Notes: generated by a model not told the origin, from the letters alone. Shown: positions 547-56,953, counted from the first letter of the stretch. The stretch: DNA of 60,759 nt from an uncultured Dehalococcoidaceae bacterium (GCA_964545815.1 CAZJGR010000002.1:1-60759), one strand, 5' to 3'. Made by a program: numbers and translations.

Positions 547-605
547 GGGGCCGGCCTCCTGCCTGCCTGCGACAGGCAGGCGACGGGCAGGCGCCAACCG
601 GCCCC
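547..605. repeat. nested palindrome (GGGGCCGG...CCGGCCCC enclosing CCTGCCTG-CGA-CAGGCAGG at 562-580)
   Basis: 8-bp outer arms at 547-554 and 598-605. The inner 8-bp arms belong to the genome-wide CCTGCCTG/CAGGCAGG family. Confidence 0.8.
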
Positions 606-643
606 TGAGACCTCATCCTCTCAACATTCTCCTCCTTGCTTAA

Positions 644-678
644 GGGAGCCGGCCTCGCCAACCGGCTCCCTTCTCTTT
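644..678 (+). terminator. possible intrinsic terminator
   Basis: GGGAGCCGG-9 nt-CCGGCTCCC stem (644-670) followed by TTCTCTTT. Confidence 0.4.
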
Positions 679-686
679 ACCCGCTT

Positions 687-710
687 CTGGACTTTGCCTG
701 ATAAGTTCAG
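687..710. repeat. CTGGACTT...AAGTTCAG hairpin (outer-arm family)
   Basis: CTGGACTT at 687-694, 8-nt loop, AAGTTCAG at 703-710 (one G.U/mismatch). Confidence 0.7.
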
Positions 711-720
711 GAGATAGGCA

Positions 721-791
721 AAAAAAAGACCCGCAGGGAAGGGGGGCCTGCCTGCGACAGGCGGGTGCCCCTAACCCTGCGGGTCTTTTTT
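721..791. terminator. bidirectional rho-independent terminator
   Basis: AAAAAAAGACCCGCAGGG (721-738) pairs with CCCTGCGGGTCTTTTTT (774-791). An A-run on one side and a T-run on the other. Sits between the convergent plus-strand operon end and minus-strand gene 790..1059. Confidence 0.8.
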
Positions 792-1059
792 ATTTGATCC
801 AGATACGGTGCACATCTGCGAAGTCATACATCAGGTCCAACAATCTGTTGGCGTACTCAACCGGAGAAAAGAGGACGTCCCGCCGGGGGATGCGGCGGAA
901 CAGAGACCTGGCCGTAAAGCCAGAGAAACAAGGCGCTTTGTCCAGGATGTCCGCTACGGCCTTCATGCTTTTGTCTATGGTAGGATAATCCTCCACCTCG
1001 CCGGCCGCATCCAGGACGGCCCGAATACCCTCAACGGTGTATAACCATACCTGTGGCAC
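790..1059 (-). CDS. hypothetical protein (89 aa)
   Basis: GTG start at 1059 with AGGAGG 5 nt upstream. Last gene of the leftward operon. Confidence 0.6.
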   Translation of the reverse strand: MPQVWLYTVEGIRAVLDAAGEVEDYPTIDKSMKAVADILDKAPCFSGFTARSLFRRIPRRDVLFSPVEYANRLLDLMYDFADVHRIWIK

Positions 1060-1090
1060 ATTGACCTCCTTTCCTGCCTGCGCGGGCAGG

Positions 1091-4312: not shown

Positions 4313-4599
4313 ATTGGAGTTCAGCACTCCTCTCTCCCGGTCCCCCGCCCCAGCTCACCATGCTCGCCATGAAACTTTCAGTTTCTGCGGCGTTGGCTCA
4401 TGTTTCTTTTGCCAGGGTGGGTATGCCTACCCACCTCGCTACCCACACAACCTCGGCCCGCGCTCCCGCGGGCCTCCTCGACTGTGCCTCTCGCGCAACG
4501 TGGGGGCCAGGAGAGAGCAGGGCTGAAAACCCTGCCCAGATAGGCGGGTTTGCTGCCCGCCTGCCTGTCGCCTGCCTGTCGGCAGACAGGGCAGACAGG

Positions 4600-5857: not shown

Positions 5858-6190
5858 TTACTGGCCGTCCCAACTATCACGAATCCGCTTGACCACCTCC
5901 TCTCGTATGCCGTGAATAGCAAAAGCCTCCGCCAGCCGTTGGACTGGCGGGCAGGAGCCGTCCAGGATGATCGCTTTGAACCAGACCTGATCGGAGATAC
6001 ACAAGAGCGACTGCACCTCCCACTGCCGGTGCCTCATCGCAATTAACACCTGCGCCTGCGCCTCGTTCTCGGCCAGTACCACGACCTGGAGGCATATTAA
6101 GGCCCCACGGCGCGGCTCAAAACTGGTCAAGACGGCGACATATAGATGGAGAGGGGTAATCTGTCTCTCGATAAGGATGTTATTCACCAT
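5858..6190 (-). CDS. hypothetical protein (110 aa)
   Basis: Trimmed to ATG 6190 (MVNNILIE) behind GGAAGGGGG. Confidence 0.55.
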   Translation of the reverse strand: MVNNILIERQITPLHLYVAVLTSFEPRRGALICLQVVVLAENEAQAQVLIAMRHRQWEVQSLLCISDQVWFKAIILDGSCPPVQRLAEAFAIHGIREEVVKRIRDSWDGQ

Positions 6191-6779
6191 GCCATACCCC
6201 CTTCCGCCGTCCATGCGAAGCGGACCCCAGGACATAGACCTTTAACTCCGGCTTGTATACCTGGAGTACGCCTCCCCGTTGAGGATGCGGCCGGGCATGG
6301 ATATAAGCCTGCTTGACCAGGTAACAAATGTGCGCCTCGGTTAGCTCGGTCAACCGCACTGCCTCCCGAACCGTGATCCAATTCGGGTCCTGGACCATAG
6401 CCTCCCTGACCAGCGTCTCGTGGGTTGGCATCAATACCACTACCTCCCGCAGAAGACCCTCAAGACGACGCCTGCGAACCGCGCCTCGCAACTTCCGCAA
6501 GGCCGCCGCCTCAATCTGCCGTACCCGTTCCCGAGTGATCCCCAGGAGAAGCCCGCACTCGTGAAGGGTCAGTCCATCCCCGAACCGGTAGATGACAACC
6601 AGGGCGTGCTTACTAGGCAAGCCCCTCACCCCTTCCAAAAGACACCCCTGGAGGGCGTCACTCCAACCCTGTTGTTCTCCGGCCCATGTGGCCTGTTGAT
6701 TGCCGGGGACGAACCCGCCGTGCGCCAACCGATAGACCAGCGCCGGGTTACGGACCGCGTTCATAATGCTGCTGCTCAT
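6180..6779 (-). CDS. sigma-70 region-4-only protein fused to an excisionase/MerR-type HTH
   Basis: LVVIYRFGDGLTLHECGLLLGITRERVRQIEAAALRKLR closely matches sigma region 4.1-4.2. No region 2/3 is visible. C-terminal WITVREAVRLTELTEAHICYLVKQ looks like an HTH_17-type helix-turn-helix. ATG behind AAAGGAG. Confidence 0.8.
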   Translation of the reverse strand: MSSSIMNAVRNPALVYRLAHGGFVPGNQQATWAGEQQGWSDALQGCLLEGVRGLPSKHALVVIYRFGDGLTLHECGLLLGITRERVRQIEAAALRKLRGAVRRRRLEGLLREVVVLMPTHETLVREAMVQDPNWITVREAVRLTELTEAHICYLVKQAYIHARPHPQRGGVLQVYKPELKVYVLGSASHGRRKGVWHGE

Positions 6780-6830
6780 CTTTTGTACTCCTTTCTTAAC
6801 CTAATTTAATTTGAGTGCCCACTGAGGCTT

Positions 6831-6860
6831 GCCCTGGACTTACCTTGATAAGTCCAGGGC
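6831..6860. repeat. outer-arm hairpin GCCCTGGACTTA-ccttga-TAAGTCCAGGGC
   Basis: Exact 12-bp arms. Confidence 0.9.
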
Positions 6861-6901
6861 AAAGTCAGAGGGTACTACACGGCAGACCTGCCTAGAGACA
6901 G

Positions 6902-6920
6902 GCCTACCTAACAGGTAGGC
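6902..6920. repeat. inner palindrome GCCTACCT-AAC-AGGTAGGC
   Basis: Exact 8-bp arms. Contains the stop codon of gene 6904..7470. Confidence 0.9.
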
Positions 6921-7470
6921 AGGCAGGGAGCCAGAAGACCGGCCCCCAACGCTTGAGAGACTTGACCTTGCTGAAAAACAGGTCGGCGGGTATCATCGCT
7001 GCGGACATACTCCTCTCTGGCAGCAGACCATAAACCGTCTGCCACGAGGCCGAGAAGCCGACCAGCCATTGATGGTTACAGAGAACGGCGAGGTCGTCCA
7101 TGGTGTAGTTAGGGATTTTGACTTTGACCGTCTCTGCCAGCTCGCAGAACGGCTTCAGAAGCCCATCCCAATCTAGCCGGGAGCGGGCAGACAAAGACCG
7201 CAGCCATTTACTAAGGGCACAACGCTGGTCCTCCGCATACTCCACACCGAGAATCCACCCCTTACCTTGATGCCATTCACCTACCAGCGGATGGATGGTA
7301 ACGCTCCTGGCTATGATAGCGTGATTGACCGTGGCGATGACATCACCGGAGCCGCCCACGCCCACGACTATCCCATTGGCCAGTCGTCGGCTTATACCAT
7401 AGTCTCGCCGTTCGTACCAGAGAGTGTCACCTGTGACGATGACCCCATTGACTGTTAGCTCTTGGGGCAT
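6904..7470 (-). CDS. hypothetical protein (188 aa)
   Basis: ATG 7470 behind AAAGGAGG. The C-terminus ...PACLPVR-stop is encoded by the palindromic element. Confidence 0.65.
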   Translation of the reverse strand: MPQELTVNGVIVTGDTLWYERRDYGISRRLANGIVVGVGGSGDVIATVNHAIIARSVTIHPLVGEWHQGKGWILGVEYAEDQRCALSKWLRSLSARSRLDWDGLLKPFCELAETVKVKIPNYTMDDLAVLCNHQWLVGFSASWQTVYGLLPERSMSAAMIPADLFFSKVKSLKRWGPVFWLPACLPVR

Positions 7471-7893: not shown

Positions 7894-8488
7894 CGCTATC
7901 CTCCTCCCCGAAATCTTCCGGGTTGTGGTAGAGCATTCCCAGGTTTAACCGAACCCTGCGGCCCGCCCATTGCCGGAATTCCCCATCGAGGACAACGACC
8001 GTTTTACCCTTGAGGTCGGCCCGTCGCAGATTGCTGCCGTCCTCGATCATACCCGGTATCCCATGCGCCTGGATAGAAGTGGGGTACACGGCGATGGTAA
8101 AGCCTGGCTCCTCGCCCTCTCTGGCTGCCCGCGCCGCGCGGACGTAAGGGATAAACCGGCTGTCGTCCAACTCGATGCCCCAGGAAACAGCGTCGAAGAT
8201 TGACTTGAGGTAATTGTCGGCATCCCTGGTCCGCCCATCATTGGGAAAGATCATGACGACATCAACCATGATCTGGACGTCTGCGGGTAAGTCCAGGAAG
8301 GCCCCACGGCGGGCACCACCACGCAGAAGCTCCGCCGTGATGGACCAGGCTAATGCTTCCTGCCAGGCCTTGACCCTCGGACGTAGAAATACCCGATTAC
8401 CGATGGCTCTTATCGTGGTTCGATGGTTGACGCTGAGATTAGGCGCCCAGGGTGCCTTGACTGTGACAAACAACTCGTCTCTGTCCAT
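7886..8488 (-). CDS. rusA: RusA-like Holliday-junction resolvase (extended C-terminus)
   Basis: RDADNYLKSIFDAV...GIELDDSRF resembles the RusA D..DN..K...D...DD motif. ATG behind CAAGGAGG. Confidence 0.7.
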   Translation of the reverse strand: MDRDELFVTVKAPWAPNLSVNHRTTIRAIGNRVFLRPRVKAWQEALAWSITAELLRGGARRGAFLDLPADVQIMVDVVMIFPNDGRTRDADNYLKSIFDAVSWGIELDDSRFIPYVRAARAAREGEEPGFTIAVYPTSIQAHGIPGMIEDGSNLRRADLKGKTVVVLDGEFRQWAGRRVRLNLGMLYHNPEDFGEEDSDG

Positions 8489-8549
8489 GAAACACCTCCT
8501 TGTATTTTTGAGGCCCGTACTGCGGGAACCGAGCCGCCCACTTGTGGAA

Positions 8550-8589
8550 CCTGCCTGACGACAGGCCTACCTAACAGGTAGGCAGGCAG
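8550..8589. repeat. nested palindrome CCTGCCTG..CAGG + CCTACCT-AAC-AGGTAGG + CAGGCAG
   Basis: Same module set as 6881-6925. Confidence 0.85.
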
Positions 8590-8740
8590 TCGGCCCAGTC
8601 ACCCCGCCCCCTTGGTGGCTGTGAGTGGCACAACCTCGCCACCCTTCCGCCACCACCCATGTCCCATAACCCCTCCGGGCCTGCCTACCCGGCCGGTAGG
8701 CCGGTTTCCGAATCCGATTCGCGGGCTATACGAAGTCCCA

Positions 8741-11051: not shown

Positions 11052-11094
11052 CGTTACCCTCCTTGTAGTACTTGATTTTGATTGCTAACCTGCC

Positions 11095-11136
11095 TGCCTA
11101 CCTGTTAGGTAGGTCTGCCTACCTGTTAGGTAGGTC
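11095..11136. repeat. tandem 21-bp unit x2 (CTGCCTACCTGTTAGGTAGGT)
   Basis: Inner palindromes at 11097-11113 and 11118-11134. Confidence 0.9.
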
Positions 11137-11156
11137 TGCAGACAGGCAGATGACCA

Positions 11157-11188
11157 CCCCCTGGACTTATTAGCATAAGCCCAGGGGG
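11157..11188. repeat. outer-arm hairpin CCCCCTGGACTTAT-tagc-ATAAGCCCAGGGGG
   Basis: 14-bp arms with one mismatch. Confidence 0.85.
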
Positions 11189-11218
11189 TGAGCATAAGCC
11201 CACCCATAGGCAGAAACC

Positions 11219-13000: not shown

Positions 13001-13039
13001 TGTAATACCCTCCTTGACTTGACCTTTGATTGCTAACTA

Positions 13040-13112
13040 CCCTCTAGACTTTTTCTCACCTGTCTGCCTACCTGTTAGGTAGGTCTGCCGCCAGGCAGAT
13101 AAGTCCAGAGGG
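13040..13112. repeat. full nested element (outer CCCTCTAGACTT/AAGTCCAGAGGG around CCTACCTGTTAGGTAGG at 13067-13083)
   Basis: Outer arms have one mismatch. The inner palindrome is exact. Confidence 0.85.
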
Positions 13113-13153
13113 CAGGCAGCAATCACCTGCCTGCCCAGGGTAAGGCCGAACCA

Positions 13154-14071: not shown

Positions 14072-14102
14072 TGCACACCTCCTTGATTTTGGATTAGAAC
14101 TG

Positions 14103-14154
14103 CCCCTTGCGGACTTTGCCTGCCTGTGGCAGACAGGTCAAAATCCGCAAGGGG
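14103..14154. repeat. CCCCTTGCGGACTTTG...CAAAATCCGCAAGGGG hairpin, copy 1
   Basis: 16-bp arms with one mismatch. The loop carries CCTGCCTGTGGCAGACAGG. Confidence 0.9.
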
Positions 14155-14168
14155 CAGGCCTGAGCCTG

Positions 14169-14543: not shown

Positions 14544-14581
14544 TGTAATACCCTCCTTGATTTTAGACTAGATTAGAACTG

Positions 14582-14653
14582 CCCCTTGCGGACTTTGCCT
14601 GTCTGCGCCCTGTCTGCCTGACAGGCAGGAGGCAGGTCAAAATCCGCAAGGGG
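14582..14653. repeat. CCCCTTGCGGACTTTG...CAAAATCCGCAAGGGG hairpin, copy 2
   Basis: The loop contains a 34-mer (14603-14636) identical to 17695-17728 inside the FtsK-like gene. Confidence 0.9.
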
Positions 14654-14658
14654 CAGAC

Positions 14659-14907
14659 CTAAACCTGCCCTATCGTATATGACGCGCCGCATGATTCGCA
14701 CGTCACCCGATCCGAATCGCCGTCGGTTTCGAGTCCTAACAACCCCATGACACGCTCGCCGCAATTCGGACACGCAAATCCTGCAGGAACCAGGTCAACT
14801 CGTACGCCATCCACTATCAGCGCATCCGCCTCTTCTAACAAGGCTGTAAACGTGCTTGGCTTTTTCTCCTCAGCCACGACCTCAGACCATCTTTTTCTGC
14901 TACACAT
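14659..14907 (-). CDS. Zn-ribbon protein (82 aa)
   Basis: CPNCG...CESCG. ATG 14907 behind the conserved leader. Confidence 0.65.
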   Translation of the reverse strand: MCSRKRWSEVVAEEKKPSTFTALLEEADALIVDGVRVDLVPAGFACPNCGERVMGLLGLETDGDSDRVTCESCGASYTIGQV

Positions 14908-14942
14908 TGTACCCTCCTTGATTTTAGACTAGATTAGAACTG

Positions 14943-14985
14943 CCCCTTGCGGACTTTGCCATTTTACCGCAAAATCCGTAAGGGG
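14943..14985. repeat. CCCCTTGCGGACTTTG...CAAAATCCGTAAGGGG hairpin, copy 3
   Basis: Same arms with a short loop. Confidence 0.9.
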
Positions 14986-15001
14986 CAGACCTGATCCTGC
15001 C

Positions 15002-15274: not shown

Positions 15275-15291
15275 CTTATTAATCTCCTTTG

Positions 15292-15875
15292 ACTACGGAT
15301 TCCTCGGGCTTATCCACCCGTCAGGCTCTAGGAAGTCGGCGAGCCTCCTACATTTTACGCCTTACCTGACATAGCAGGTTAGAGCCTGGCGGAAGGATAA
15401 ACCGAAACTCCCGCTTTGTGTACGATTGCCATCATTGCACAGTATCCACCGCCGCTGGCCGCATAGTACAACGTACCAGCTATCGATGTAGCATTACCCC
15501 CGCGCTCGGCCTCACGTACCACTATCATCAGGCTGTTTTTGGAAGCTAACTTTGACCTGTTGGTCTATCCCATCTCTCCGAAGAGTCCCCCCCGACTAGG
15601 CGGGGTTACTTCACTCAGAAACTCCATCGCTGGAGGCTGCCTGAGTTGGACCGGTCTCCCTCCGTTTCCACTCTTTGGGAGAGAAGAAGCTTACGCTACC
15701 TTGACACCCCTCTTGTGGCTTACAATCCCCCCGCTTTCTCCGCCATGTTCTCGGCTGTTTCCCCCTCCGCTGGCCCGGTGGCTTTGCGAGTTTCCCCGCC
15801 TCCGTTTCTACACCTGGGCGACCTTCGGGCTGCCTACCCCACTGAGGGGCTTGAGGATTGCTCACTTTTAATTCT
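15292..15875 (-). ncRNA. candidate large structured RNA / 5' leader (~585 nt), class unknown
   Basis: No credible ORF on either strand. Begins ~7 nt downstream of a consensus extended -10 promoter. Minus-strand reading gives these hairpins: GCGGG-GAAA-CTCGC (15799-15786); two-tier ACTCAG..CTCCA-GCGA-TGGAG..CTGAGT (15646-15613); CTC-UUCG-GAG (15585-15576); TCTCCC...GGGAGA enclosing a G-GAAA-C loop (15682-15655); CCCCG-6 nt-CGGGG (15605-15590). A long-range helix pairs 15861-15853 with 15730-15722. A ~24-bp near-perfect duplex pairs 15404-15381 with 15330-15305. Confidence 0.6.
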
Positions 15876-15881
15876 ACCTTA

Positions 15882-15910
15882 ATTATACCAGGTGTTACAA
15901 TTAAATGCAA
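15882..15910 (-). promoter_or_regulatory. sigma70-type promoter P-earlyL (TTGCAT-17-TGgTATAAT)
   Basis: On the minus strand, -35 TTGCAT is at 15910-15905 and -10 TATAAT at 15887-15882. The spacer is exactly 17 nt and a TGn extended -10 is present. Confidence 0.75.
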
Positions 15911-15950: not shown

Positions 15951-16026
15951 TGCTTTTGCGAATAACGCAATTACAAATAACGTAAAGGCTGGCCACCTTG
16001 TAGCGCAATAAAACAGCCGCCCCTCG

Positions 16027-16200
16027 TAGGCAGAGCGTGACCTGCAGGACCTCGCTGTAACCGGCGCGACTTGCTCGACTTTGCGCCAACCGGCGTGGCT
16101 TGCTCGACTTTGAGCGGCAGAGCGCCTGACTGTAGTCAAAGGTAGGCAGAGCGCCGGACTGCGCGCGCCTGGATGCAGAGCGCCGGACTGAGGTAGGCAG
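16027..16200. repeat. block of ~29-bp periodic direct repeats (iteron/centromere-like)
   Basis: AACCGGCG(C/T)G(A/G)CTTGCTCGACTTTG at 16059 and 16088. GCAGAGCGCC(T/G)GACTG at 16118, 16147 and 16175, with a degenerate copy at 16031. The region is noncoding. Confidence 0.8.
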
Positions 16201-16310: not shown

Positions 16311-16342
16311 CCCCCTGGACTTTGCCTAGTAAGTCCAGGGGG
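16311..16342. repeat. outer-arm hairpin CCCCCTGGACTT-tgcctagt-AAGTCCAGGGGG
   Basis: Exact 12-bp arms. Confidence 0.9.
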
Positions 16343-16344: not shown

Positions 16345-16380
16345 ATAAAAAAGAGAGCGCAGATGACCGCGCCCTCTTCA
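16345..16380 (-). terminator. rho-independent terminator of the second leftward operon
   Basis: Minus strand reads GAAGAGGGCGC-ggtcatct-GCGCTCTCTT followed by TTTTTATT. Confidence 0.75.
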
Positions 16381-17343: not shown

Positions 17344-17409
17344 TCTGGACTTGCCTGCCTGTGGCAGACCTACCTAACAGGTAGGCAGACAGGTCAAGAC
17401 AAGTCCAGA
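17344..17409. repeat. full nested element (TCTGGACTT / AAGTCCAGA around GCCTGCCTG.. and CCTACCT-AAC-AGGTAGG)
   Basis: All three palindrome tiers are present. Overlaps the stop codon of the FtsK-like gene. Confidence 0.9.
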
Positions 17410-18704
17410 CTTTCATCAACTAACTGCTTTTTGACTGTTGCGATCGCGGCCGCAACACGAGGAGGATTGACGTCTGTCCCATACTGTTCGATATGCCACC
17501 TGCGGACCAACCGCTGCGAGCATTCTCCCGACGTCTGTAACTGCGCCTTGATAAAGGCTAACATCTCACTTTCAGCGATTGCACCAGGCCGACCAGGCCC
17601 GGGCATCGCCAAGACCTCCCGCAGTTCCTTTTCATCGCCCGAACCTGACCCCGGCTCCTTAACCGCGTGACATTCGACCCGCAAGCCGGCCTGCCTGCGC
17701 CCTGTCTGCCTGACAGGCAGGAGGCAGGCAAGATCGCTTTCGTGAACCAGAGCAGCCTTGAAGCGTGTTTTCTGCCCCTGGTGGACGACTAGCATGTCGC
17801 CCAACCCCAGGAGCCTTTCAGCGTTCGAACCCGGCACGCCTAGAGCGATAGAAGCTTCTGCCGCCGAGTTGACTGCCCCGCTGATCCGGACCGGAAAGTT
17901 AGCTCGCATAAGACCGGCCACAACATCGGCGGATGGCCTCTGCGTCGCAATAATGCAATGTATGCCGGCCTCACGCCCACGCTGCACCAGGCGAGCCAGA
18001 CCCACCTCGACAGGATGACCTCCTACCATGACGAGGTCCGCCACCTCGTCCACGAACAGATACAACGCAGGACGATTGAACCCCTGCCTATCCCGCCGCT
18101 CCAGAGTTTGCAGCAAATGTGTCAGAAGCCCTGTAGCCGACTGCGCATCCTTGCAGCAATCCTCCACCCCCCGCAAACTTGACAGCCCGGCCAACTTGCG
18201 GCCCTTGGGGTCCACGAGGAGAAACCTGGCGTCCTGGACTTTTGACCACAAGACCAGAGAAACCAGCATGGTACACAGAAGCTCTGTCTTCCCTGAGCCT
18301 GTCATGCCGCTTACCAAAGCGTGCGCTGCCGTTGGACTGGACATACACAACAAAAGAGGTACACCTCGATTTGACAGGCCCAGGAGCGCGCTTTGCCCAG
18401 GAGGAGCGCTTTTGAACCGGGTGATTACCTGGTTGAAGGGCACCGAAACCCCATCACTACGGGGGACCTCGATGATCACCCCATCGGGCTGGCTGTTGAC
18501 AATAATTTTAGGGACTTGAAGGGACAACGCAATCTCACGATTAAGACCTTCCAGCTCTCGAACCCGCCGCCCTCGGCCCAACTGAACACGATAGCAAACC
18601 ACCTGCGGCAAGATCTCCCCACCCAGGATGCGAACTGCTATCCCGTAGTCTTTGAGAACCTCTTCGAGTCGGTTTGACTGTAGCTCCAAAAGCCTTCTAT
18701 CCAT
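17394..18704 (-). CDS. soluble FtsK/SpoIIIE/TraB-like dsDNA translocase
   Basis: GMTGSGKTE Walker A, LFVDEVADL Walker B, IIATQRPSADVV, LLGLGDMLV. No TM segment. A ~100-aa C-terminal domain follows an in-frame palindromic element. Confidence 0.9.
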   Translation of the reverse strand: MDRRLLELQSNRLEEVLKDYGIAVRILGGEILPQVVCYRVQLGRGRRVRELEGLNREIALSLQVPKIIVNSQPDGVIIEVPRSDGVSVPFNQVITRFKSAPPGQSALLGLSNRGVPLLLCMSSPTAAHALVSGMTGSGKTELLCTMLVSLVLWSKVQDARFLLVDPKGRKLAGLSSLRGVEDCCKDAQSATGLLTHLLQTLERRDRQGFNRPALYLFVDEVADLVMVGGHPVEVGLARLVQRGREAGIHCIIATQRPSADVVAGLMRANFPVRISGAVNSAAEASIALGVPGSNAERLLGLGDMLVVHQGQKTRFKAALVHESDLACLLPVRQTGRRQAGLRVECHAVKEPGSGSGDEKELREVLAMPGPGRPGAIAESEMLAFIKAQLQTSGECSQRLVRRWHIEQYGTDVNPPRVAAAIATVKKQLVDESLDLS

Positions 18705-21335: not shown

Positions 21336-21344
21336 CTGCCCACC

Positions 21345-38941: not shown

Positions 38942-39411
38942 TGGCCAGCGATGCCACCGCCTACGTCATAGAAACCCTCAAGGCCGCCGATTCTGTAACC
39001 GACCTGATCATGGGTGCAGAAGACGGGATTTTTGAGAGTGGTGACCTCGACATGAGCTATGTCGCTCAAGCCGAGGATTCCCGTCGCATCGTGGAAACCC
39101 CGACCAAAATCCTGGCCGTCGTGGTCCAGGATGGAGGAGAGACGGCCACAACCGAAACCCGCCACAACCAGACCGTGAATGTTTGGCTCTATGACCGGCA
39201 ACGAGGCTATGCTAACATCAGGGCAGTCAGGAACGCAATTTACCTGGTCCTCGATGGCCGCACCTCCGCCCTGGAGGACCCGGCCGGCATCCGGACGGGC
39301 ATCCTGGACCTGCACTTCCAGGACCGCTCAGGGCATTTACACGCTCTGAAACTGGCCCTGGATTATGAACTGTTGACCTATGAAGCCACCGTGCATCTGG
39401 ACTTATCCTAG
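38941..39411 (+). CDS. putative tail completion/terminator protein (DUF3168-like)
   Basis: Position upstream of the tail tube gene. ATGA-type coupling. Confidence 0.5.
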   Translation: MASDATAYVIETLKAADSVTDLIMGAEDGIFESGDLDMSYVAQAEDSRRIVETPTKILAVVVQDGGETATTETRHNQTVNVWLYDRQRGYANIRAVRNAIYLVLDGRTSALEDPAGIRTGILDLHFQDRSGHLHALKLALDYELLTYEATVHLDLS

Positions 39412-39420
39412 TAAGTCCAG
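39397..39420. repeat. outer-arm hairpin CTGGACTTA-tcctag-TAAGTCCAG
   Basis: Exact 9-bp arms. Contains the stop codon of the preceding gene. Confidence 0.9.
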
Positions 39421-39444
39421 AAGATAAGACAGAAAGGAGTTACC

Positions 39445-40287
39445 ATGACCCAAATTACAACCGGAATCGGACTGCGACACGTGCGAGTGGGCCCACGCGC
39501 CTCTGCCGGGACCATGGCCATGCCCGATGACCACGTGGTCGGGACTTGCTACCCCGGTATCCAACTGAGCGGGGCGGCCACCCTGACCCTGACTCCACCC
39601 GAACCGGAACGTGTCCAGGCCCGGGGCGATGACCGGGTGTACCACACGTTCCACATGCCCCCCACCGAGGGGTGGACGGGGGAGCTGACCTGCAGCAAAC
39701 GAGATATCCAGGCCGTGGCCCTTATCACCGACGTCCTGGCCTGGGGCGAAGACGCTCTTTTTCACGGCGTCGCAATGGGCACGGACAAAGAGGGCCTGGA
39801 GCCTGACCTGATCATGTGGGCACAGCGCAAAGGCGCCGATACCGACCCCGCCTCGGACACCTATGGGCAGGAAGTGTGGGAAGCCTACGAGATTCTCTGT
39901 TGCAAGGCGACCCCCATGCCGCCCTCCCAGGAGCAATCGGCGGTGGGCGAAATGCGCTATGCCGTGACTATGCAGCAGGTGGCTACCCGCATCGTCGGCG
40001 AAGAGTTTACCGAACTCGACCACGGCTGCACCAAGGCGACCATCTTCCCCGTCGTGGCCAGACCCGGCAAGATTTTTTATGACTTTGACGAAGGGGATGC
40101 CGCCACCGATGACTTTGTGCTGACCCACACGCCTACCTCCGCCACCGATATCAAGGTCTACGTGGACGGCGTGGACGAACCCGCCGGGTGGACGCTCGAC
40201 GTGGCCACCAAGACCGTGACCTTTATCGCCGCTCCTGCGGACGGCGCCACCCTGGCCTTTATGTATTGTACCCCTGATACCCTGTAA
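39445..40287 (+). CDS. putative major tail (tube) protein
   Basis: 280 aa, immediately upstream of the frameshifted chaperone pair. AAAGGAG SD. Confidence 0.6.
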   Translation: MTQITTGIGLRHVRVGPRASAGTMAMPDDHVVGTCYPGIQLSGAATLTLTPPEPERVQARGDDRVYHTFHMPPTEGWTGELTCSKRDIQAVALITDVLAWGEDALFHGVAMGTDKEGLEPDLIMWAQRKGADTDPASDTYGQEVWEAYEILCCKATPMPPSQEQSAVGEMRYAVTMQQVATRIVGEEFTELDHGCTKATIFPVVARPGKIFYDFDEGDAATDDFVLTHTPTSATDIKVYVDGVDEPAGWTLDVATKTVTFIAAPADGATLAFMYCTPDTL

Positions 40288-41478: not shown

Positions 41479-41502
41479 CTGAGCTTATCAGGATAAGTCC
41501 AG
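41479..41502. repeat. outer-arm hairpin CTGAGCTTATC-ag-GATAAGTCCAG
   Basis: 11-bp arms with 2 mismatches. Confidence 0.7.
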
Positions 41503-48126: not shown

Positions 48127-48137
48127 CCCTGGACTTA

Positions 48138-48177
48138 CCTGCCTGCCTACCTAATAGGTAGGCCTGCGACAGGCAGG
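48138..48177. repeat. 40-bp composite palindrome, second exact copy
   Basis: Identical to 29533-29572. Flanked by CCCTGGACTTA on the 5' side. Confidence 0.95.
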
Positions 48178-48204
48178 TCAAGAAAAGCTCGGAGAGGAGA
48201 GGTT

Positions 48205-49044: not shown

Positions 49045-52000
49045 TGCCTGAGCTAAGCCCTGGCGACCTGGCCCTCCTGCGCACCCATCCCCACAAAAGC
49101 GAAGAATGCCTGGCCGTGCTACACCCTGCCACCATGTTGACCTGCCTCCTGGACGGCGTCCCAACCGGCGACCCCGTAACCCAAATCAGCTACAGCGACA
49201 TCGATGAGGGCGACCCTTTGAATGTCATCGCCGGCATGACTCTATATGTGGGGACCTCTGAGGGAGGGAGGCAGAAGGGAACCTGCCGCATCCGCAAGGC
49301 GCCGGCCGATAGCATCCTCTACATAGCCGAAGACTCCAAAATTGAGTGGGAGGACGATGATTACCTGACCGTCGTGGAAAACTACGAGTTGTGGGTCAAA
49401 TATCCCCGCCTGGTCGTGGCGGGAGAGACCCTGACCATCTACAAGGACTGGGAGCAAGCTTACAACGGCGAACACTCCAACTGGCCGCCGGTCGCTATCC
49501 TGGGGCCTCCCGATTGCCAGTTCATTGACCCCGATACCGGCCTGGCCACCTGCAGCTTTGTGGGAGAGAGAAGCTATGCCGTCGCCCCAGGAGCGACCAT
49601 CCCCGGCGCTAACTATACCTGGTACTTTCCAGACGGGACCCCCGAGGTGTCTACCGACCCGGGCACGGAAGCGGCCCCAATTGTGGTGACCTGGGATGCC
49701 CCTGGGACCTATTGGGTACAGCTCGAGGTTGAGGATTCTAACGGCAAGACTCACCTGGGCCGCCGCCCCGTTTTCATCTTTGACAGGACCGGTACAGACG
49801 CACCTTATACCCGTTTCAAGATGGGCAGCCGCTCAGGAAGCATTGGCCAACATGGACACCAGGCCTCATTCGAGGTTTACGGCGATGCCGACCAGGCCGA
49901 GTTTCCGGACGGTGCCCTGGTTGTCTATTTCACTCAGGACGGGTATGGCGATACCCAACAGAGCATTGGAGGCAACTTTCCTTTCAGGTCGCATATCAAG
50001 TTTGTGGGTTATATCCAGCGAGAGTCCACGCAAAAGGACCCTGAGACCTCCACCGTAACCTTTGAGGCCGCCACCATCAACAGCCTCATGGCAGCCCGGG
50101 AGGGCTTTAGCTGCTGGATAAAAACCCGGGGGACGGCCACCACCTGGAGCGATGCGGTGGCCCTTACCGCCGACCGCGCCGCCCTTTCCCTCTGCCGTCA
50201 CCACTCGACCATCCTGGATATTTGTGACGTCATAATTTCAGGAAATACCCTGTACATCAAGTCCCAGGAATTCGCTGCCAAGACCAACCTTCTACAGCAG
50301 CTGCAGACTCTCTATGATGACCTTTTCGCTCACGTGGCCTGCGACAAACAGGGACGGCTTTACTTTGACCTCGACCCGCAAATGAGACCGGTGAGCGAGA
50401 GGGATGACATTGATGTCATCGTCGACCTGACCCACGCCGACTGGCGGGACAAACTCGGCCTGCCTCGCCCCCAGGAGCCCAAGACGTCATTTATCAACCT
50501 GGCGGGAGTGGCCTACCCCGGCTACCCCCACGACGTCATCCCTATCCTGTCTAAAGCCCCCGGCGATGCCCCCGCCTACGGCGGCTCGACCAGGGAGATC
50601 TCCGGCCTGATTTTATCTACCCAGGCCGATGGCAACGAAAAGGCCGGCCTGGCCCTGGCCGCCGATAACAATGAGTTTCCCCAGGTGAGTATACCCCTGG
50701 CTGGTCATTGGGACGTTTTTGACATCGTGCCCCAGGAGTACGTCCGCCTGTCCCTGGCGGCCGGCGACACCAAACGCGGCATCGTCTGGACCAACCAGAA
50801 GCTCATCCCGAGGCAAGTCAATTACCGCGTCGAGGAAGGGGATAGCGGCCGCGCCATCCAGGTAGACATCGAGGTCGAGAAGGATTCTTTCGGACCGGCC
50901 GGAGTAGACGGCGATTACCCGACCGACGTCCCGCCCGTTACGACTACCACCACTGCCCCACCCCCCACACCTCCACCTGGCGGCTATGAGGGAGAGGCCG
51001 GGACCGTCGTCGCAGCTCACAGCGAGGACGGCGTGTACTGGAGTGACTTCATGGGCGAATCCTGGGAGAACCGCCTGGCAGGAGCGGTGCTCGACCTGAT
51101 CTGGGACCCCTGGTGGTTCACCAATGAGCGCGCCGGAAACCATGATCCGGCCAACTGCATCCTGTGGGCCTGCGGCCCTGGCTTTATCAAGGTAAGTCCA
51201 GACGCGGGAGAAACCTGGACTGGCCGCACCCCGACCGATGATCCTCCTAATACCTGGGAGGACACCACCCCGCCCACGGCTACCGGTGTAACTTACAAAC
51301 AGCTGCACGGCGACATCTACAACCTGGACGTCTTCTATGCCCTGGTGGAATGGCAGGAGGTAGATAGCGGCCTGGACAAGTGGCGGGGTTGGGTGGCCAA
51401 GACTCTTGACAACGGCCTGCACTGGACCTGGTATGAACTGGCCTCGTTTATCGGAGGCCCAACCTATACCTTCGATTGGGCCGGTGGACCCGAAGGATTC
51501 ACCCCTGTGGGTGAAACGTTTTGGGCGCAGGAAAGTATAGCAACCTGGTACGATGGCGTCTGGCCATCCTGCCCTGACGGCGGGGATGGTTACTGGTTGG
51601 CTAACGCCGTCTCGCCGGGCGGCCCTTGGGCAGATTGGGAAACGTATATCTGTCTGCAATACGCCACCAAAATGAGCTTTGACACGGTAAACTGGCTTTA
51701 CCGGCAATGGGGTGGCCTCAACGTAGGCGGTCAAAGACTGGAGGTTTATACCTCGGTTAACGGCGTAGACTGGGTTCAGGCCTATACTACCTACTGGGAA
51801 TCCGACCAACCCTGCCCTTATGCCTCGGGCGCCGTTCCTCTGGTTGTGGCAGATAAGTATGCCCGCTTTGTTGTGTGGGGGCATGGCGCTTTCGGGCACG
51901 TCCCTGAGAACGCTTTTTTTGCCCTGACCCTGACGAATCTGATCGCGGGCACAGTACAAATGCGGCCGCTGGCCTTCGATCTGGACATGGAAACCGGAGG

Positions 52001-53484: not shown

Positions 53485-53486
53485 TT

Positions 53487-53530
53487 CTGGACTTATCCTG
53501 ACCTGCCTGACGACAGGCGGGTAAGTCCAG
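53487..53530. repeat. nested element CTGGACTTA...CCTGCCTG-acga-CAGGCGGG...TAAGTCCAG
   Basis: Exact 9-bp outer arms. Confidence 0.9.
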
Positions 53531-53533
53531 AGG

Positions 53534-54028
53534 TTAGAGTTTATGATGCCGAATGCGATGGCACTTTACGCAAAGCGGAATTACATCCAATGGCCGATTG
53601 TAGTCTGGATGGTGATACTCCTTTGCCTGCTGGCCACAATCAGCACAGTTGGGGGTGGAAGGAGAAGGTATTTTGCCTGCCGTGATAGCGTGATTAACGC
53701 TACGCACAGCCAGGTGTTTTTGAGGCCGCTGCGAACGATAACGATAAGTACGGACATGACTGGACGCCTTACCTTGGCTACTATGCACATAGTCACGTTC
53801 GGTGGCTTGTCCCTTTTCACTTTGTCTGTATCTCTGCTTCTTTGCCTTACCCTTTTCACTTTGGTCATACCGGCGTTGGATCATTTTACCCTGCTCGGTT
53901 TGTACATACGCCCGGCCATATACAGCCTGACAACGCTTACAGTAGTTTTGATAGCCATCTCTATTTGTTGTTCCTCGATTGAACGCATCGAGCGGTTTCA
54001 TTTGTTTACAGCCAGAACAACGCTTCAT
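53534..54028 (-). CDS. HNH homing-type endonuclease
   Basis: CADCG...EYHHPDYNRPLDVIPLCVKCHRIRHH. N-terminal CSGCK...CKRC. Repeated (Y/R)xQSEKGK motifs. Trimmed to ATG 54028. Confidence 0.85.
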   Translation of the reverse strand: MKRCSGCKQMKPLDAFNRGTTNRDGYQNYCKRCQAVYGRAYVQTEQGKMIQRRYDQSEKGKAKKQRYRQSEKGQATERDYVHSSQGKASSHVRTYRYRSQRPQKHLAVRSVNHAITAGKIPSPSTPNCADCGQQAKEYHHPDYNRPLDVIPLCVKCHRIRHHKL

Positions 54029-54177
54029 TATTCCCCCCAAAAAGGAGCCCCCGGGCTGCCGGCAGTTTGTGTCTAGCAACCTGCACATTTGCAGCCCAGG
54101 GGCATAAAATAAAAACTGCCTGAGTGCATCGGGTTGCTAGACACCTTAATGATAGCATCGAAAGAGAGGATTGTCAA

Positions 54178-54660
54178 ATGGGTATGGTATTAACAGACAC
54201 GCTTCCGGTAGATGCAGGAACCCAAAAATTTGTTGCACCAATTGACTCGACCACAGCCCTATTCGTCCTGCTTCGCGCCCTGAACGTGGAAACGGTTGAT
54301 ACCCTGGACTATGGCGACCAGGGCGTCAGTTTAGGGGCAGGGCAGGGGGCCACCACCCAGACCCATGACGCCGTAACCGTAACCACCGCCGAAAGCGTGG
54401 GAACTCAGGTCATCTCGGCGGGCTATAGCAAGGCCGCCATCTTTGTCGAGGTGGAAGCCGGGGCAGACATAGCCATCACCGTCTATGGCCGCCTGATCAC
54501 GGCCGGAGATAACTACACCCTGGCCATACTGGAGACCCAGGAAGCCTCCAGCCGTCACGTCTATCTAGTGGAGATTGCCTGCCCCTACCTGGCCATCGGA
54601 TTGACCGCCGTGGCCGATAGCGCCGTCTGTTCATGCAGTGTCCACCTGCTACCTGCCTGA
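54178..54660 (+). CDS. hypothetical tail-associated protein (160 aa)
   Basis: Trimmed to ATG 54178 behind GAGAGGA. Confidence 0.6.
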   Translation: MGMVLTDTLPVDAGTQKFVAPIDSTTALFVLLRALNVETVDTLDYGDQGVSLGAGQGATTQTHDAVTVTTAESVGTQVISAGYSKAAIFVEVEAGADIAITVYGRLITAGDNYTLAILETQEASSRHVYLVEIACPYLAIGLTAVADSAVCSCSVHLLPA

Positions 54661-54738
54661 CCTGCCTGTCGCAGGCAGGCCTGACAGGCCATACAGTGCT
54701 TGAATTTTGCCTGCCTGACGACAGGCAGGGAGGGAACC

Positions 54739-56499
54739 ATGACCATCCGCCCGCTGGCCGACCGGTGGGGAAGGCTCAGAAACTTTAGCTTTTCTTCCGA
54801 GACTGAGCCGACCCAAACCTGGCCCGGCTGCACCTGGATAAACCCGGCCACCGGAGTCATCCGCGTGCGCAACGCGGCCGATAGCGCCTGGGTTGTAGCC
54901 GGAGGTGGTACGGCCGGACCCCATCATGAGAACCATGAAAACGGAGGCGATGACGAGGTCAACGTCGCCGGGCTTTCGGGAGTCCTGGCCGACCCACAAA
55001 CGCCGGCCGCTCATCATGGCTCCCACGAAAACGGCGCCGGCGATGAAATCAGCGTCGCCGGACTTTCGGGAGAACTGGCCGACCTCCAGCCGCCCAAGGC
55101 CCACGACCATTCGGACGCGGCGACACAGGGCGGCCAGAACTTGCGGCAGATTCTTGAGTTGGAAATGGAAAACGCCACCGTCCTGGTCCCTGTCGCCGGA
55201 GTTATCACCCGAACTCAGACATACCACCGAGTAGACCCTGACGGTGGCAGTGCCGACCTCCACACCATCCTCGGGGGAACCGAGGGCGACATCCTTTTCT
55301 TGCAACCCCTGGGCTACGCCGATATCGTCCATGTATTGCAGTACCAGATACCAGGCAACATCATGCTCACCCGGCTTCAAAATGCCGACTTGCTCAAGTG
55401 GCAAATCGCAGGATTTATCTACGATGGCACGTGGTGGCACGATTTTAGCTGGATTGGAATCAAGACCCATAACCACACCAGCCTTGCCGAGGGCAGCGTA
55501 CTACTCCATGCAAACCTGTCTGGTCTTGGGAATGATGAACACACCCAATACCTCAAAGAAAAAGCGTCGGGAGGTACAGCAGCGGAGATACCGGTCCACG
55601 CCCACACCTCGGCCGATGAAGGTGGCATATCGCCTGGGCGCAACCAATTGACCAATGGCGGCCACGAGCTCTGGCAACGAGGAGCCGGAGCCTTCACGGC
55701 GAACAACGCCTACTGCGCTGACCGCTGGCAAATTTATCTGGCCGGCACCGATACGCTCTCTATAACCAGGAGTGCCACTAAGAAAACCAACTCGCTCTAC
55801 GCCTCGGCCTGTGCCTTTGTCCTCGGCAACGGCGCAGGGGCGACACAGTACCAGCAGAAGCTGGTCATCTCCACCAGTGACGAGTACCACCACCTGCTGG
55901 GCCAGGTTGTTTCTCTGACCATCTCGGTTAAGCTATTGGCCGGTGTAGCCAGCGCCGTCCGCTCTTTTATCACCTACGATGGGACGGGCGGGGCAACGAC
56001 TTATAGCAGCTATCATGGCAATAACACCGATTGGGAAGACCTGACCGTCCTCAACGTGACCGTGCCGACTGATGCGACTTATGTCCTGGTTGGCGTGGCC
56101 CTTGCCGCCTCCTGCACAGCCTACATTGATAACTGCGCCCTGACCCTGGGGCCACAAGCGCCGGTCTACGAGGGCGAGCACCCCGCCGAGTTGTGGGACA
56201 GATGCCAGCGGTACTATGAAATTCAGGCCGGGACGGTAGGAGGGCAGCCCTGGGTCGTAAACAACAATGGCGGTGCCGCAGGTTACATCGCGTGCTCCCC
56301 CGTCTTTACAACCCGTAAAACAGTGGCTCCTACGATGACCAAAAGCGGCACCTGGATCGTGAATAAAGTCGGCCAACCCGTCGCCAGGGCCAGCAGCGTT
56401 ATCGGATATAACCTCTATGCACAAATTTCGAGTGCGGGGAATCAATACTTTCAACCCGATAGTGTAGATGACACCGTAACAGCGGAGGCCAACCCATGA
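54739..56499 (+). CDS. tail fibre protein
   Basis: Trimmed to ATG 54739 behind GGGAGGGA. Tandem His-rich units HxNHENGGxDEVxVAGLSGxLADxQ. Confidence 0.75.
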   Translation: MTIRPLADRWGRLRNFSFSSETEPTQTWPGCTWINPATGVIRVRNAADSAWVVAGGGTAGPHHENHENGGDDEVNVAGLSGVLADPQTPAAHHGSHENGAGDEISVAGLSGELADLQPPKAHDHSDAATQGGQNLRQILELEMENATVLVPVAGVITRTQTYHRVDPDGGSADLHTILGGTEGDILFLQPLGYADIVHVLQYQIPGNIMLTRLQNADLLKWQIAGFIYDGTWWHDFSWIGIKTHNHTSLAEGSVLLHANLSGLGNDEHTQYLKEKASGGTAAEIPVHAHTSADEGGISPGRNQLTNGGHELWQRGAGAFTANNAYCADRWQIYLAGTDTLSITRSATKKTNSLYASACAFVLGNGAGATQYQQKLVISTSDEYHHLLGQVVSLTISVKLLAGVASAVRSFITYDGTGGATTYSSYHGNNTDWEDLTVLNVTVPTDATYVLVGVALAASCTAYIDNCALTLGPQAPVYEGEHPAELWDRCQRYYEIQAGTVGGQPWVVNNNGGAAGYIACSPVFTTRKTVAPTMTKSGTWIVNKVGQPVARASSVIGYNLYAQISSAGNQYFQPDSVDDTVTAEANP

Positions 56500-56915
56500 A
56501 CATCTCAACCAGGAACAAGGACGACACGATCACTTTCTGCCAGGGGATGCACATCTACACAGTGGACCTCAAGACCCTGGCCTTCGGCAAGCGATTGACC
56601 GATAGCAAGGAGAAGCCCACAGAAGTCGTGTTCGAGGGTGAGATATTTTGCATCCGCCCTGATTGCCCGGCCTGTGCCGCCGCCGCCCAGGAACACGGCC
56701 TCCCGGGCTACAAGGTTCCCGTTCACTCCATAGCCTGGCCCATCCTGGGCGATATCGAAGCGTTGGAAATCCACCTGCGCCATAGGATGCAGAAGGGGGG
56801 AAAGAATCTTGAAACCGCTATCACCGAAATCGAACCCTACCTGCCAGATACCTACGCCCGCGCCCGCTTGCAAGAAGCCGTCAAAGAAGTCCGGAAAGCC
56901 CCGCCTACCCTTTAG
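56496..56915 (+). CDS. hypothetical protein (139 aa; fibre chaperone?)
   Basis: ATGA overlap with the fibre gene. Confidence 0.55.
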   Translation: MNISTRNKDDTITFCQGMHIYTVDLKTLAFGKRLTDSKEKPTEVVFEGEIFCIRPDCPACAAAAQEHGLPGYKVPVHSIAWPILGDIEALEIHLRHRMQKGGKNLETAITEIEPYLPDTYARARLQEAVKEVRKAPPTL

Positions 56916-56929
56916 GTAGTCCGCCTGTT

Positions 56930-56953
56930 CTGGACTTATCATGATAAATTCAG
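56930..56953. repeat. 24-bp element CTGGACTTATCATGATAAATTCAG
   Basis: Reverse complement of 23220-23243. Ends 11 nt before the -35 of the next promoter. Confidence 0.9.

Follow-up and report, generated by a model that had tools for sequence, protein, structure and literature searches.

The stretch of DNA analysed here (the window: 60,759 nt from an uncultured Dehalococcoidaceae bacterium, CAZJGR010000002.1) is the 60.8-kb genome of a tailed temperate phage, and nested palindromes recur in its intergenic gaps. We hold with moderate confidence that these repeats form two superimposed systems: an ancestral layer, made up of a 24-nt dyad and the cassettes in which it often lies, and a recent, selfish-like layer of tiny palindromes. 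In the following, O denotes the outer dyad, M the middle tier and I the inner tier of the nested structures, and L004 to L102 are retrieved contigs.

On both strands of the window, the outer word CTGGACTT occurs 29 times versus 1.97 expected, the middle word CCTGCCTG 47 times versus 4.8, and the inner word CCTACCT 45 times versus 6.6. This seven- to 15-fold enrichment, together with 96 perfect hairpins (stem of at least 7 bp) compared to 33.7 in shuffled sequences (about three-fold), supports the claim of an earlier sequence-only reading that the arm words recur beyond composition, and all coordinates listed there contain what was described. Thirty-four of the 96 perfect hairpins lie in non-coding DNA, which constitutes 12–13% of the window. 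We catalogued 37 family elements; folding of the gaps on the transcribed strand placed their stems in the interval from the stop codon of the preceding gene to the Shine-Dalgarno (SD) sequence of the next. The statement that almost every intergenic gap is occupied was too broad, as an element is present in 30 of the 44 gaps of at least 20 nt (68%). Two copies taken for middle tiers only, at 35401 and 53487, are middle palindromes inside outer arms (35392/35427 and 53487/53523). The proposed fixed nesting order is generally followed, with one exception on the minus strand (20571-20622), where inner-type arms surround a middle-type word in an I/M composite.

The outer dyad in the window and in related phages

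The outer tier is a 24-nt dyad with the skeleton CTG-N3-TT-N8-AA-N3-CAG (in its fuller form YCTG-N3-TT-N8-AA-N3-CAGR), in which CTG and CAG are 21 bp and TT and AA 10 bp apart. Scanning with this fixed pattern revealed 16 copies in the window versus 0.00 expected, and five further copies carry inserts. Across six loci from this phage and distant relatives (148 kb), 51 copies were found versus 0.1 in shuffled sequences, a difference that separates signal from noise; about 46 of the 51 are intergenic. The nearest relatives are metagenomic contigs whose capsid proteins are 64–70% and most early proteins 30–55% identical to those of the window. Two of them are full-length scaffolds from SAMN13740702, a sample to which a study of subseafloor sediments from the Costa Rica margin refers. 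INPHARED contained no near-identical phage, a capsid search of IMG/VR returned no relative, and motif scans of IMG/VR gave unrelated single matches only.

Comparison of orthologous gaps showed O at the same junctions in the relatives, with sequences such as CTGAGCTTATCAGGATAAAGCCAGA and CTCTGGGCTTATGCTCATAAGCCCAGAG, and M/I blocks as extra sequence in the window. Shared positions include the junction between the AAA and DUF3150 genes and the gap upstream of the sigma-70-region-4-like (sigma-r4-like) gene 6180-6779, where the dyad at 6829-6862 (minus strand) has a 14-bp perfect stem and O is found in L050 and L051 as well. Further shared positions are the gap after the major capsid gene (35390-35436, plus strand; O with M in its loop, O-like without M in the relatives), the gap upstream of the 280-aa gene 39445-40287 (39396-39421, plus strand; O-like in L005 and L007), a site 12 nt before the tape-measure ATG (41479-41502, plus strand) and the starts of the methyltransferase genes. 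In three phages, O follows directly after the operon-end terminator and is itself followed by a G-run (L050 4743, L051 245, window 16311-16342 on the minus strand, after the terminator at 16350-16379). The intergenic DNA around the dyad is not alignable between phages, while the skeleton and its positions are kept. The outer tier thus has a history separate from that of the other tiers, as a sequence-constrained dyad at the same positions across phages with 30–55% protein identity, and the single modular family previously proposed has to be divided.

This conservation also bears on the idea that all repeats, including the outer dyad, are selfish or neutral DNA without function for the phage. 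M and I palindromes do behave in this way, and comparable hairpin elements accumulate in compact organelle genomes (PMC4478555, PMC2800124). For the dyad, we regard this as the least probable of the explanations considered, because neutral repeats would not persist at orthologous junctions amid unalignable gaps.

The inner triplets are preferentially GGA/TCC in the window phage and GGG/CCC in its relatives, and one orthologous junction illustrates a series from G-C over G·U to A-U: GGGCTT/AAGCCC in the relatives, GGGCTT/AAGTCC at window position 11161, and GGACTT/AAGTCC in other window copies. Conservation is higher for the 3' arm in the window but for the 5' arm in the relatives, which gives no consistent signal, and self-complementarity of the central loop is depleted (8% versus 34%), which we do not treat as interpretable. 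As a separate observation, the orthologous 24-nt dyads at L050 8123-8146 and L051 2945-2968 are exact reverse complements, i.e. flipped in place. A function of O as promoter, including one for the sigma-r4-like protein or an ECF-type sigma factor, was rejected, since the spacing is wrong and some copies abut the ATG.

We next consider whether the dyad acts at the RNA or the DNA level. In the 51-copy alignment, 76.9% of the cells in the proposed stem are paired compared to 71.3% in shuffles, with a covariation score of 0.237 versus 0.162; none of 500 shuffles reached either value. Double changes number 9–15 at each of four flank pairs and mostly affect the flanks (e.g. CGCTCT/AGAGCG, CCCC/GGGG, TTGCC/GGCAA). 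Of 57 gaps, 40 show a surplus of folding stability on the sense over the antisense strand that exceeds the one in composition-matched shuffles (mean −3.0 versus −1.0 kcal/mol; Wilcoxon p = 0.0007), and this bias is seen in the early regions of all four phages. Moreover, outer arms that are 27–48 nt apart due to an inserted palindrome are still complementary, partly via sense-strand G·U pairs (13044/13101, 35392/35427, 48129), and therefore fit a hairpin rather than a double-stranded DNA site of fixed spacing. Because the skeleton is kept in non-folding late copies while the stem flanks covary, the ten skeleton positions are, as judged from the sequences, under sequence constraint, to which a structural constraint is added in the early copies. 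Among the readings of the dyad we rank first an RNA-level hairpin role in early operons, ahead of a DNA-level role, and assign to it about half of our confidence.

Several observations weigh against the RNA-level reading. Dyads in the late operon keep all ten skeleton positions yet barely fold (ΔG −0.5 to −7 kcal/mol), the inner N3 positions are unpaired in 30–50% of the aligned copies, and the folding test revealed no sense-strand bias in the late regions of the window. Copies are also found where little RNA is expected, i.e. between divergent promoters at 23220 and directly after the terminator in three phages. The exact flip between L050 and L051 turns a sense-strand G·U into A·C. Isolated mismatches comprise 13 G·U and 10 A·C, an underpowered count in place of which the comparison of sense and antisense folding was used. 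Finally, the approximately 50 open reading frames (ORFs) scanned included no identifiable RNase III gene, RNA-binding protein, transposase or reverse transcriptase.

According to the second-ranked reading, which we consider possible and clearly less probable than the RNA-level one, the dyad would be a double-stranded DNA site for a putative dimeric phage regulator, an immunity-type repressor for which about 16–20 sites would serve as operator and roadblock, with the GC-rich stems and the M/I palindromes as independent passengers. The symmetric positions are retained even in copies unable to fold, and the orthologous copy was flipped without apparent cost. One copy, CTGAATTTATCATGATAAGTCCAG at 23220-23243 (no strand assigned), lies between the two strongest, divergent promoters (11 of 12 positions; −35 at 23176 on the minus and 23249 on the plus strand). 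Its reverse complement at 56930-56953 (plus strand) is located 11 bp upstream of the −35 box of the promoter TTGACA-17-TAAAAT, and the copy just after the terminator in three phages would fit as well. The phage is temperate and encodes several small DNA-binding proteins (sigma-r4-like, which is conserved in the relatives, MarR-like, IclR-type winged helix-turn-helix and ribbon-helix-helix). Winged-helix proteins are encoded at 18706-19509 and 20310-20564, and the ribbon-helix-helix protein at 22863-23078. The lineage-specific inner triplet would parallel the co-evolution of stoperator specificities with their repressors, as described in PMC6550527. In contrast, a DNA site has no need for flanks that covary as a stem with many different sequences, and neither the five copies that tolerate 27–48 nt between half-sites, with arms complementary via sense-strand G·U, nor the RNA-type strand bias of early intergenic regions would be expected of it. 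Both promoter-proximal copies lie clear of the −35 and −10 boxes, and their centres at about −53 and −59 are mutually out of helical phase.

Cluster A stoperators, as described in PMC9283540 and PMC6550527, resemble the dyad in having tens of copies of a short motif in early and late intergenic regions of a temperate phage, with a lineage-specific consensus. They differ in being 13-bp asymmetric sites of a monomeric repressor that are oriented with transcription, whereas the element studied here is a 24-bp dyad with one orthologous copy flipped, is frequently part of covarying stems and accommodates inserts between its two half-sites.

Transcription termination and the early-operon cassettes

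Two canonical terminators, each a hairpin with a T-run, and four promoters that fit TTGACA-17-TAnnnT at 11 of 12 positions are present in the window, and the host therefore uses ordinary bacterial signals. An element counted as terminator-like if, on the transcribed strand, at least five of the 8 nt following its stem were T. None of the 37 family elements reached this threshold (mean 1.7 T), while the bona fide terminator at 16350-16379, one of two positive controls, did; in the other, the genuine bidirectional terminator at 722-791 (A8..T-run, no strand assigned), which carries an M palindrome (747-765) in its tip, the T-run is located within the stem. These results bear out the earlier suggestion that the elements are not ordinary intrinsic terminators. 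That they might nevertheless terminate or attenuate transcription, through a host RNA polymerase independent of a U-tract, is suggested by GC-rich stems positioned after stop codons; hairpins without U-tract at gene ends have been described in some phyla. We consider this highly unlikely, as this phage and its relatives end their operons with canonical T-run terminators, the late copies are too weak for termination, and the late-operon elements lie directly before the SD or ATG, 1–26 nt from the start codon, in 30-kb operons that need read-through.

In the early operons of all four phages, the gaps share one architecture: a stop codon, a hairpin A-loop-A' (typically GGCAGGC-TTTG-GCCTGCC), a central hairpin that often is the dyad, a segment A'' (GGCAG) that is both a direct repeat of A and complementary to A', a leader, AAGGAGG(TG) and the ATG. 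The leader is TTCAAATCC or a variant of the TTCTAATCC type, with the conserved form TTC(A/T)AATCC..AAGGAGG. The copies at 14103, 14582 and 14943, previously set apart as a related family, are indeed related through this cassette architecture, which recurs in the relatives; they do not contain the outer dyad, and their central hairpin has a different sequence. The first of these three minus-strand cassettes (14072-14168) runs from the stop codon through CAGGC-TCAG-GCCTGCC, the stem CCCCTTGCGGATTTTG../..CAAAGTCCGCAAGGGG with a nested M, and GGCAG-TTCTAATCC to AAGGAGG and ATG; the second (14544-14662) has two nested M and the third (14908-15001) none. The gaps 11052-11218 and 13001-13153 harbour further copies. 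In the former, at 11145-11200 (minus strand), A is GGGTGGGC, A' is GCTCACCC, the dyad is CTGGGCTT..AAGTCCAG with a G·U pair, and A'' is GGGGTGG. In the latter, a 5' M-type hairpin (A:A', 13110-13136, minus strand) competes with the base of the O-M-I-M-O three-tier hairpin at 13040-13112 on the same strand.

A, A' and A'' change together, as GCAGGC/GCCTGC/GGCAG, GAGCGGGC/GCCCGCTC/GAGCGG, GAGCAGGC/GCCTGCTC/GAGCAG and GGGTGGGC/GCTCACCC/GGGTGG. In the 12 cases in which our script picked A:A' correctly, the two-hairpin and the long-hairpin fold are 0.2–6 kcal/mol apart. This near-equal stability arises in part because A resembles A'', and a switch is hence a possibility rather than a finding. On this basis we tentatively put forward, jointly with the proposal for M and I made below and with slightly less confidence than in the DNA-site reading, that the cassettes may be bistable RNA toggles in which A' pairs with either A or A''. 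Since A starts 0–15 nt after the upstream stop, it would lie inside the footprint of a terminating ribosome, and translation of one gene might set the fold, and hence processing or translation, at the next junction.

Returning to the favoured RNA-level reading, the dyad would be an ancestral, functional layer that marks intercistronic junctions throughout the phage lineage. The cassettes would be transcribed within polycistronic mRNAs and fold as stem-loops that act as punctuation rather than terminators, through processing or through protection of 3' or 5' ends, which would tune the dosage of adjacent cistrons relative to each other. They may also insulate the individual ribosome-binding sites. 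A conserved factor probably recognises the invariant positions of the dyad. This would resemble the RNase III sites of T7-like phages, which likewise lie as stem-loops between the cistrons of long operons, lack U-tracts and often come shortly before the SD of the following gene. In T7, host RNase III cleaves within an RNA duplex of about 20 bp that contains an internal loop, and Dunn and Studier are said to have described, in 1983, some ten or more similar intercistronic sites in T7 that stabilise the upstream mRNA. The sequences are unrelated, and the stems here are predicted, with at least 18 bp in 13 of the 37 elements.

As a by-product, the repeated cassettes would supply homology for the shuffling of small early genes. 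The small genes between DUF488 and DUF1257 vary between phages, each of them is flanked by cassettes, and homologous genes occupy different slots (L050_8184 versus L052_6351; W_5858 versus L051_10972). One could thus argue that the cassettes are primarily recombinational linkers for the swapping of small genes, as proposed for T4 PeSLs, with a secondary effect on expression; an O copy inside a tail gene and the breaking of assembly contigs of this phage at elements would agree with this. We deem it improbable as the primary role, since the dyad persists as well at junctions of core and structural genes that are strictly syntenic and show no exchange, and homology alone would leave unexplained the structural constraint to which stem covariation and strand bias point.

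The PeSLs of T4-type phages (PMC2839356, PMC4122927) resemble the early cassettes as repeated composite units that extend from stop to SD/ATG with a G/C-rich stem-loop. Both surround small variable genes, both give evidence of moving between slots, and the association of stem-loops with variable ORFans applies here too. PeSLs differ in that they are defined by a strong sigma-70 early promoter, whereas no promoter-like site was found in the cassettes, which are GC-rich: only five sites with at least 10 of 12 positions exist in 60 kb, all of them outside cassettes. In addition, PeSL stems act as terminators, while the elements studied here have no T-tracts.

The closest described feature is the SAS/ESAS system of Cluster K phages (PMC3203893), the function of which is unknown. 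As in the cassettes, a conserved SD-containing leader lies a few nucleotides before start codons, in many genes with imperfect inverted repeats with a variable spacer upstream of it. Both show a sub-lineage-specific consensus, are found in non-structural operons with larger gaps, are co-oriented with transcription and are absent from the host genome. The SAS sequence itself (GGGATAGGAGCCC, 13 bp, 3–7 bp before starts) is absent from the window (one match with two mismatches versus 2.7 expected). The window phage, by comparison, has inverted repeats of greater length with nesting and GC extensions, copies of its dyad are also spread across the structural operon, and a second, private palindrome family is present.

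Middle and inner palindromes as a private family

M and I can be treated as one family because both have arms built of tetranucleotide repeats, with (CCTG/CCTA/TCTG)n pairing to (CAGG/TAGG/CAGA)n, in units of 17–41 nt. The window contains ten CCTACCT-N3-AGGTAGG and five exact CCTGCCTG-N3-4-CAGGCAGG palindromes, compared to none in 87 kb of relatives. Scanning for a multi-copy host carrier of the M/I composite (CTGCCTACCTNNNAGGTAGG, 17 specified bases) revealed none among 185,579 species genomes or in JGI metagenomes: the 29 scattered species-genome matches, none with more than one site (two loci held one palindromic or two adjacent sites), and the 48 single JGI matches are at chance level.

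Copies within the window are closely similar to each other. The units at 14597-14636 and 17689-17728 are identical at 39 of 40 nt, and the M-I-M composite at 29533-29573 (plus strand), which supplies the stop codon of gene 28498-29556, is 96% identical over 47 nt to 48138-48184. The latter belongs to the structure at 48127-48190 previously described as three-tiered, of which the O 5' arm and M-I-M are present (48129-48178, plus strand), while the 3' outer arm is degenerate (AAGCTCGG). M and I sit at the tips of three unrelated kinds of hairpins, namely the dyad, the 14-kb stems and a genuine terminator, and where junctions can be aligned they come in addition to what the relatives have, as in the M-I-I-M block at 11086-11141 (minus strand), which is extra at the relatives' junction between AAA and DUF3150.

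The listing of purely intergenic copies was incomplete, as middle palindromes also occur in genes at 17689-17728, 30976-30998, 38180-38255 and 58541-58561. In a linker of the FtsK-like protein, an in-frame 40-nt M composite (17689-17728, minus strand) encodes ACLLPVRQTGRRQA where the orthologues have an 8-aa gap; the stop of this gene is overlapped by another O-M-I-M-O three-tier hairpin (17344-17409, minus strand). Gene 38082-38603 (gp38082) carries two in-frame M palindromes (38180-38255, plus strand). The second is a 21-nt unit encoding PASPSGR opposite a gap of exactly 7 aa in the orthologues, and the other, nearby unit encodes LPVRQTG. In the portal gene, a 23-nt unit (30976-30998, plus strand) encodes YLPRRQAG in frame, within a 12-aa insertion that is absent from the orthologues. 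The palindrome at 58541-58561 (plus strand) is an M-like one in coding sequence. Whichever way they are oriented, I palindromes contain stops in two of the three reading frames, and only M was found inside genes.

As M and I are nested in the tips of other hairpins and stand in frame in at least three proteins in which the orthologues have gaps, we conclude that they propagate as insertion units. They have probably multiplied in this genome only, by copy-insertion or by gene conversion, recombination or repair, and would survive at harmless sites such as existing hairpin tips, spare intergenic DNA and variable protein linkers. The earlier proposal of a REP/MITE-like selfish element is supported for the middle and inner tiers, which are private, nested in unrelated hairpin tips and in frame in at least three genes; it does not extend to the outer tier, and the genome scans gave no sign of a REP source in a host. 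Some observations weigh against insertion. No target-site duplications or direct repeats flank 32 M/I copies, and the in-frame insertions are deduced from gaps in variable linkers of proteins that are 46–67% identical. L004, L101 and L102, the other contigs retrieved for this phage, match the window at 100% identity and show no presence/absence polymorphism. Likewise, no transposase, HUH enzyme, RAYT/Y1 transposase or reverse transcriptase was found in the approximately 50 ORFs scanned. It was also observed that independent short-read assemblies break inside hairpin elements, at the ends of L102 (window 13060 and 14121) and the start of L004 (29544).

Palindromic elements of Rickettsia, reportedly described by Ogata and colleagues in 2000, are similar to the M/I units. 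Further parallels are the GC clusters of yeast mitochondria (PMC4478555) and the repetitive hairpin elements of sponges and fungi (PMC2800124), i.e. short, GC-rich, lineage-private and mostly intergenic palindromes that merge and nest into larger ones, are occasionally inserted in frame in variable protein parts and have no known transposase of their own. M and I show the features by which mobile GC palindromes are recognised, with presence or absence judged against distant relatives. They differ in residing in a phage genome, in their smaller units (17–41 nt), in arms built of 4-nt repeats and in the lack of a visible target-site duplication. As the second half of the tentative joint proposal made above, M and I could be the first GC-cluster-type mobile DNA described in a virus, non-coding units aimed by repair or gene conversion at hairpin tips and occasionally at coding DNA. 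Both parts of this system are of known kinds; what is new is that the two layers are combined, that the mobile units are extremely small and that they stand in frame within phage proteins.

REP/BIME elements with their RAYT, as described in PMC3733652, are likewise imperfect palindromes of 20–40 nt, intergenic and transcribed. They differ from M and I in that no host with many copies was found among the 185,579 species genomes, in which the true host may not be represented, no RAYT/Y1 was present in the approximately 50 ORFs, and GTAG lies within the I arm rather than as a terminal tag. A classification as MITE, which would call for terminal inverted repeats and a target-site duplication, was rejected, with no direct repeats around 32 M/I copies and chance-level matches outside this phage. 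Integron attC sites, which have RYYYAAC/GTTRRRY cores at the palindrome base and go with an IntI-type integrase and attI/Pc, were rejected as well: the hairpin bases here are YCTG/CAGR or of the GGCAG type, GTTAGGT occurs only at I tips, and the integrase is a generic Phage_integrase match. Nor did any feature support attC-like, FtsK KOPS-like (GGNAGG words) or Chi-like readings. Among Rfam covariance models, only tRNA-Trp reached its gathering score.

Gene map, further elements and significance

The early operon is transcribed leftward (~0.8–23.1 kb) and encodes the integrase, which marks the phage as temperate, a RusA-like protein, an AAA ATPase, the FtsK-like ATPase and the sigma-70 region-4 helix-turn-helix protein. 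Left of it, on the plus strand, a double M hairpin, CCTGCCTG..CAGGCAGG (547-605; ΔG about −42 to −45 kcal/mol), follows gene 199-513, and an O dyad, CTGGACTTTGCCTGATAAGTTCAG, lies at 684-713. The remaining leftward elements, all on the minus strand, begin with a weak M hairpin in a stop-SD interval (1066-1090), an I palindrome of the form CCTACCT-N3-AGGTAGG (2620-2638), an O dyad within a 22-bp GC-extended stem (2887-2936), and tandem M words or a weak M hairpin (4556-4590). Adjacent I and M modules cover the stop of gene 6904-7470 (6868-6923), an O-like dyad with one mismatch lies inside the RusA-like gene (8273-8296), and M-I-M composites are found at 8545-8590 and 21308-21340. O skeletons occur at 18234-18257, as a weak hairpin, and at 21779-21802, and an O dyad precedes the start of the MarR-like gene by 22 nt (19532-19559).

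The rightward operon (23.4 to ~53.5 kb) encodes two D12 methyltransferases, a Mu-like portal, capsid and tail genes. The 585-aa product of 26717-28474 has homologues in other phages annotated as terminase large subunit, and counterparts of the 2203-aa ORF 41515-48126 in the relatives match the tape-measure family PF10145. On the plus strand, an O skeleton without a stable hairpin abuts the ATG of the D12 methyltransferase gene 24418-25455 (24391-24414), and another abuts that of the second D12 gene (28471-28494). Both belong to a 203-nt duplication with 73% identity (24391-24593 / 28471-28673) that spans the dyad and the 5' ends of these paralogous N6-adenine methyltransferase genes (24418-25455, 28498-29556). 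An M palindrome (26105-26127) lies shortly downstream of a 46-nt tandem duplication with 91% identity (26010-26101) at the 3' end of gene 25785-26096. The O skeleton at 32180-32203 is followed by a AAGGGAGG SD, and the one at 51178-51201 lies inside the 1191-aa tail gene and shares 16 identical nt with the 6834 copy. O with M in its loop recurs at 53486-53531, and three M palindromes are found at 54652-54731 (a double one at 54652-54689, and 54708-54731).

A third block extends up to 60 kb and comprises a DnaC/IstB-like loader and a tRNA-Trp (CCA) gene at 60147-60219, detected by both ARAGORN and Rfam. Antisense to the late operon, 53534-54177 (minus strand) encodes a 184-aa cysteine-rich, zf-CRD-like protein from its own 11/12 promoter (54177-54149) and could be a moron or a gene expressed in lysogeny. 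On the minus strand, the strong promoter TTGCAT(15910-15905)-17-TGnTATAAT(15887-15882) is followed by about 600 nt without a convincing ORF (15275-15910), a candidate for a phage non-coding RNA or a long structured 5' untranslated region. This promoter and a purine-rich leader of about 450 nt are kept in the relatives (L050 4875-5330; L051 400-830), with no Rfam match. Upstream of it, at 16020-16200, lie iteron-like direct repeats, GGCGCTCTGCCTAC in about four copies and a 29-nt unit, CAAAGTCGAGCAAG.., in two. Four tandem 33-nt palindromic units (AACCGGTACGGAAATTGTACCGGTT + GACGAAAA; 57698-57826) inside ORF 57339-58277, which adjoins the IstB/DnaC-like loader gene (58468-59358), look like a replication origin within an initiator gene. 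Tandem repeats of about 19 nt (GGCATCATCGCCGCCTGCG) are also present at a contig end (L051 1-120).

A 24-nt dyad conserved far beyond protein similarity marks a testable pair of regulator and site, or an RNA-processing signal. In uncultivated phages, gene regulation can be approached through few features, one of which is repeated intergenic motifs, and this lineage has relatives in subseafloor sediment. For annotators, the elements are a caution that a hairpin after a gene need not be a terminator. The M and I palindromes indicate that hairpin DNA without an enzyme of its own can proliferate in a tightly packed viral genome and remodel proteins such as the portal, the FtsK-like ATPase and gp38082, which is relevant to the diversification of phage genes and to the fragmentation of phage metagenomic assemblies.

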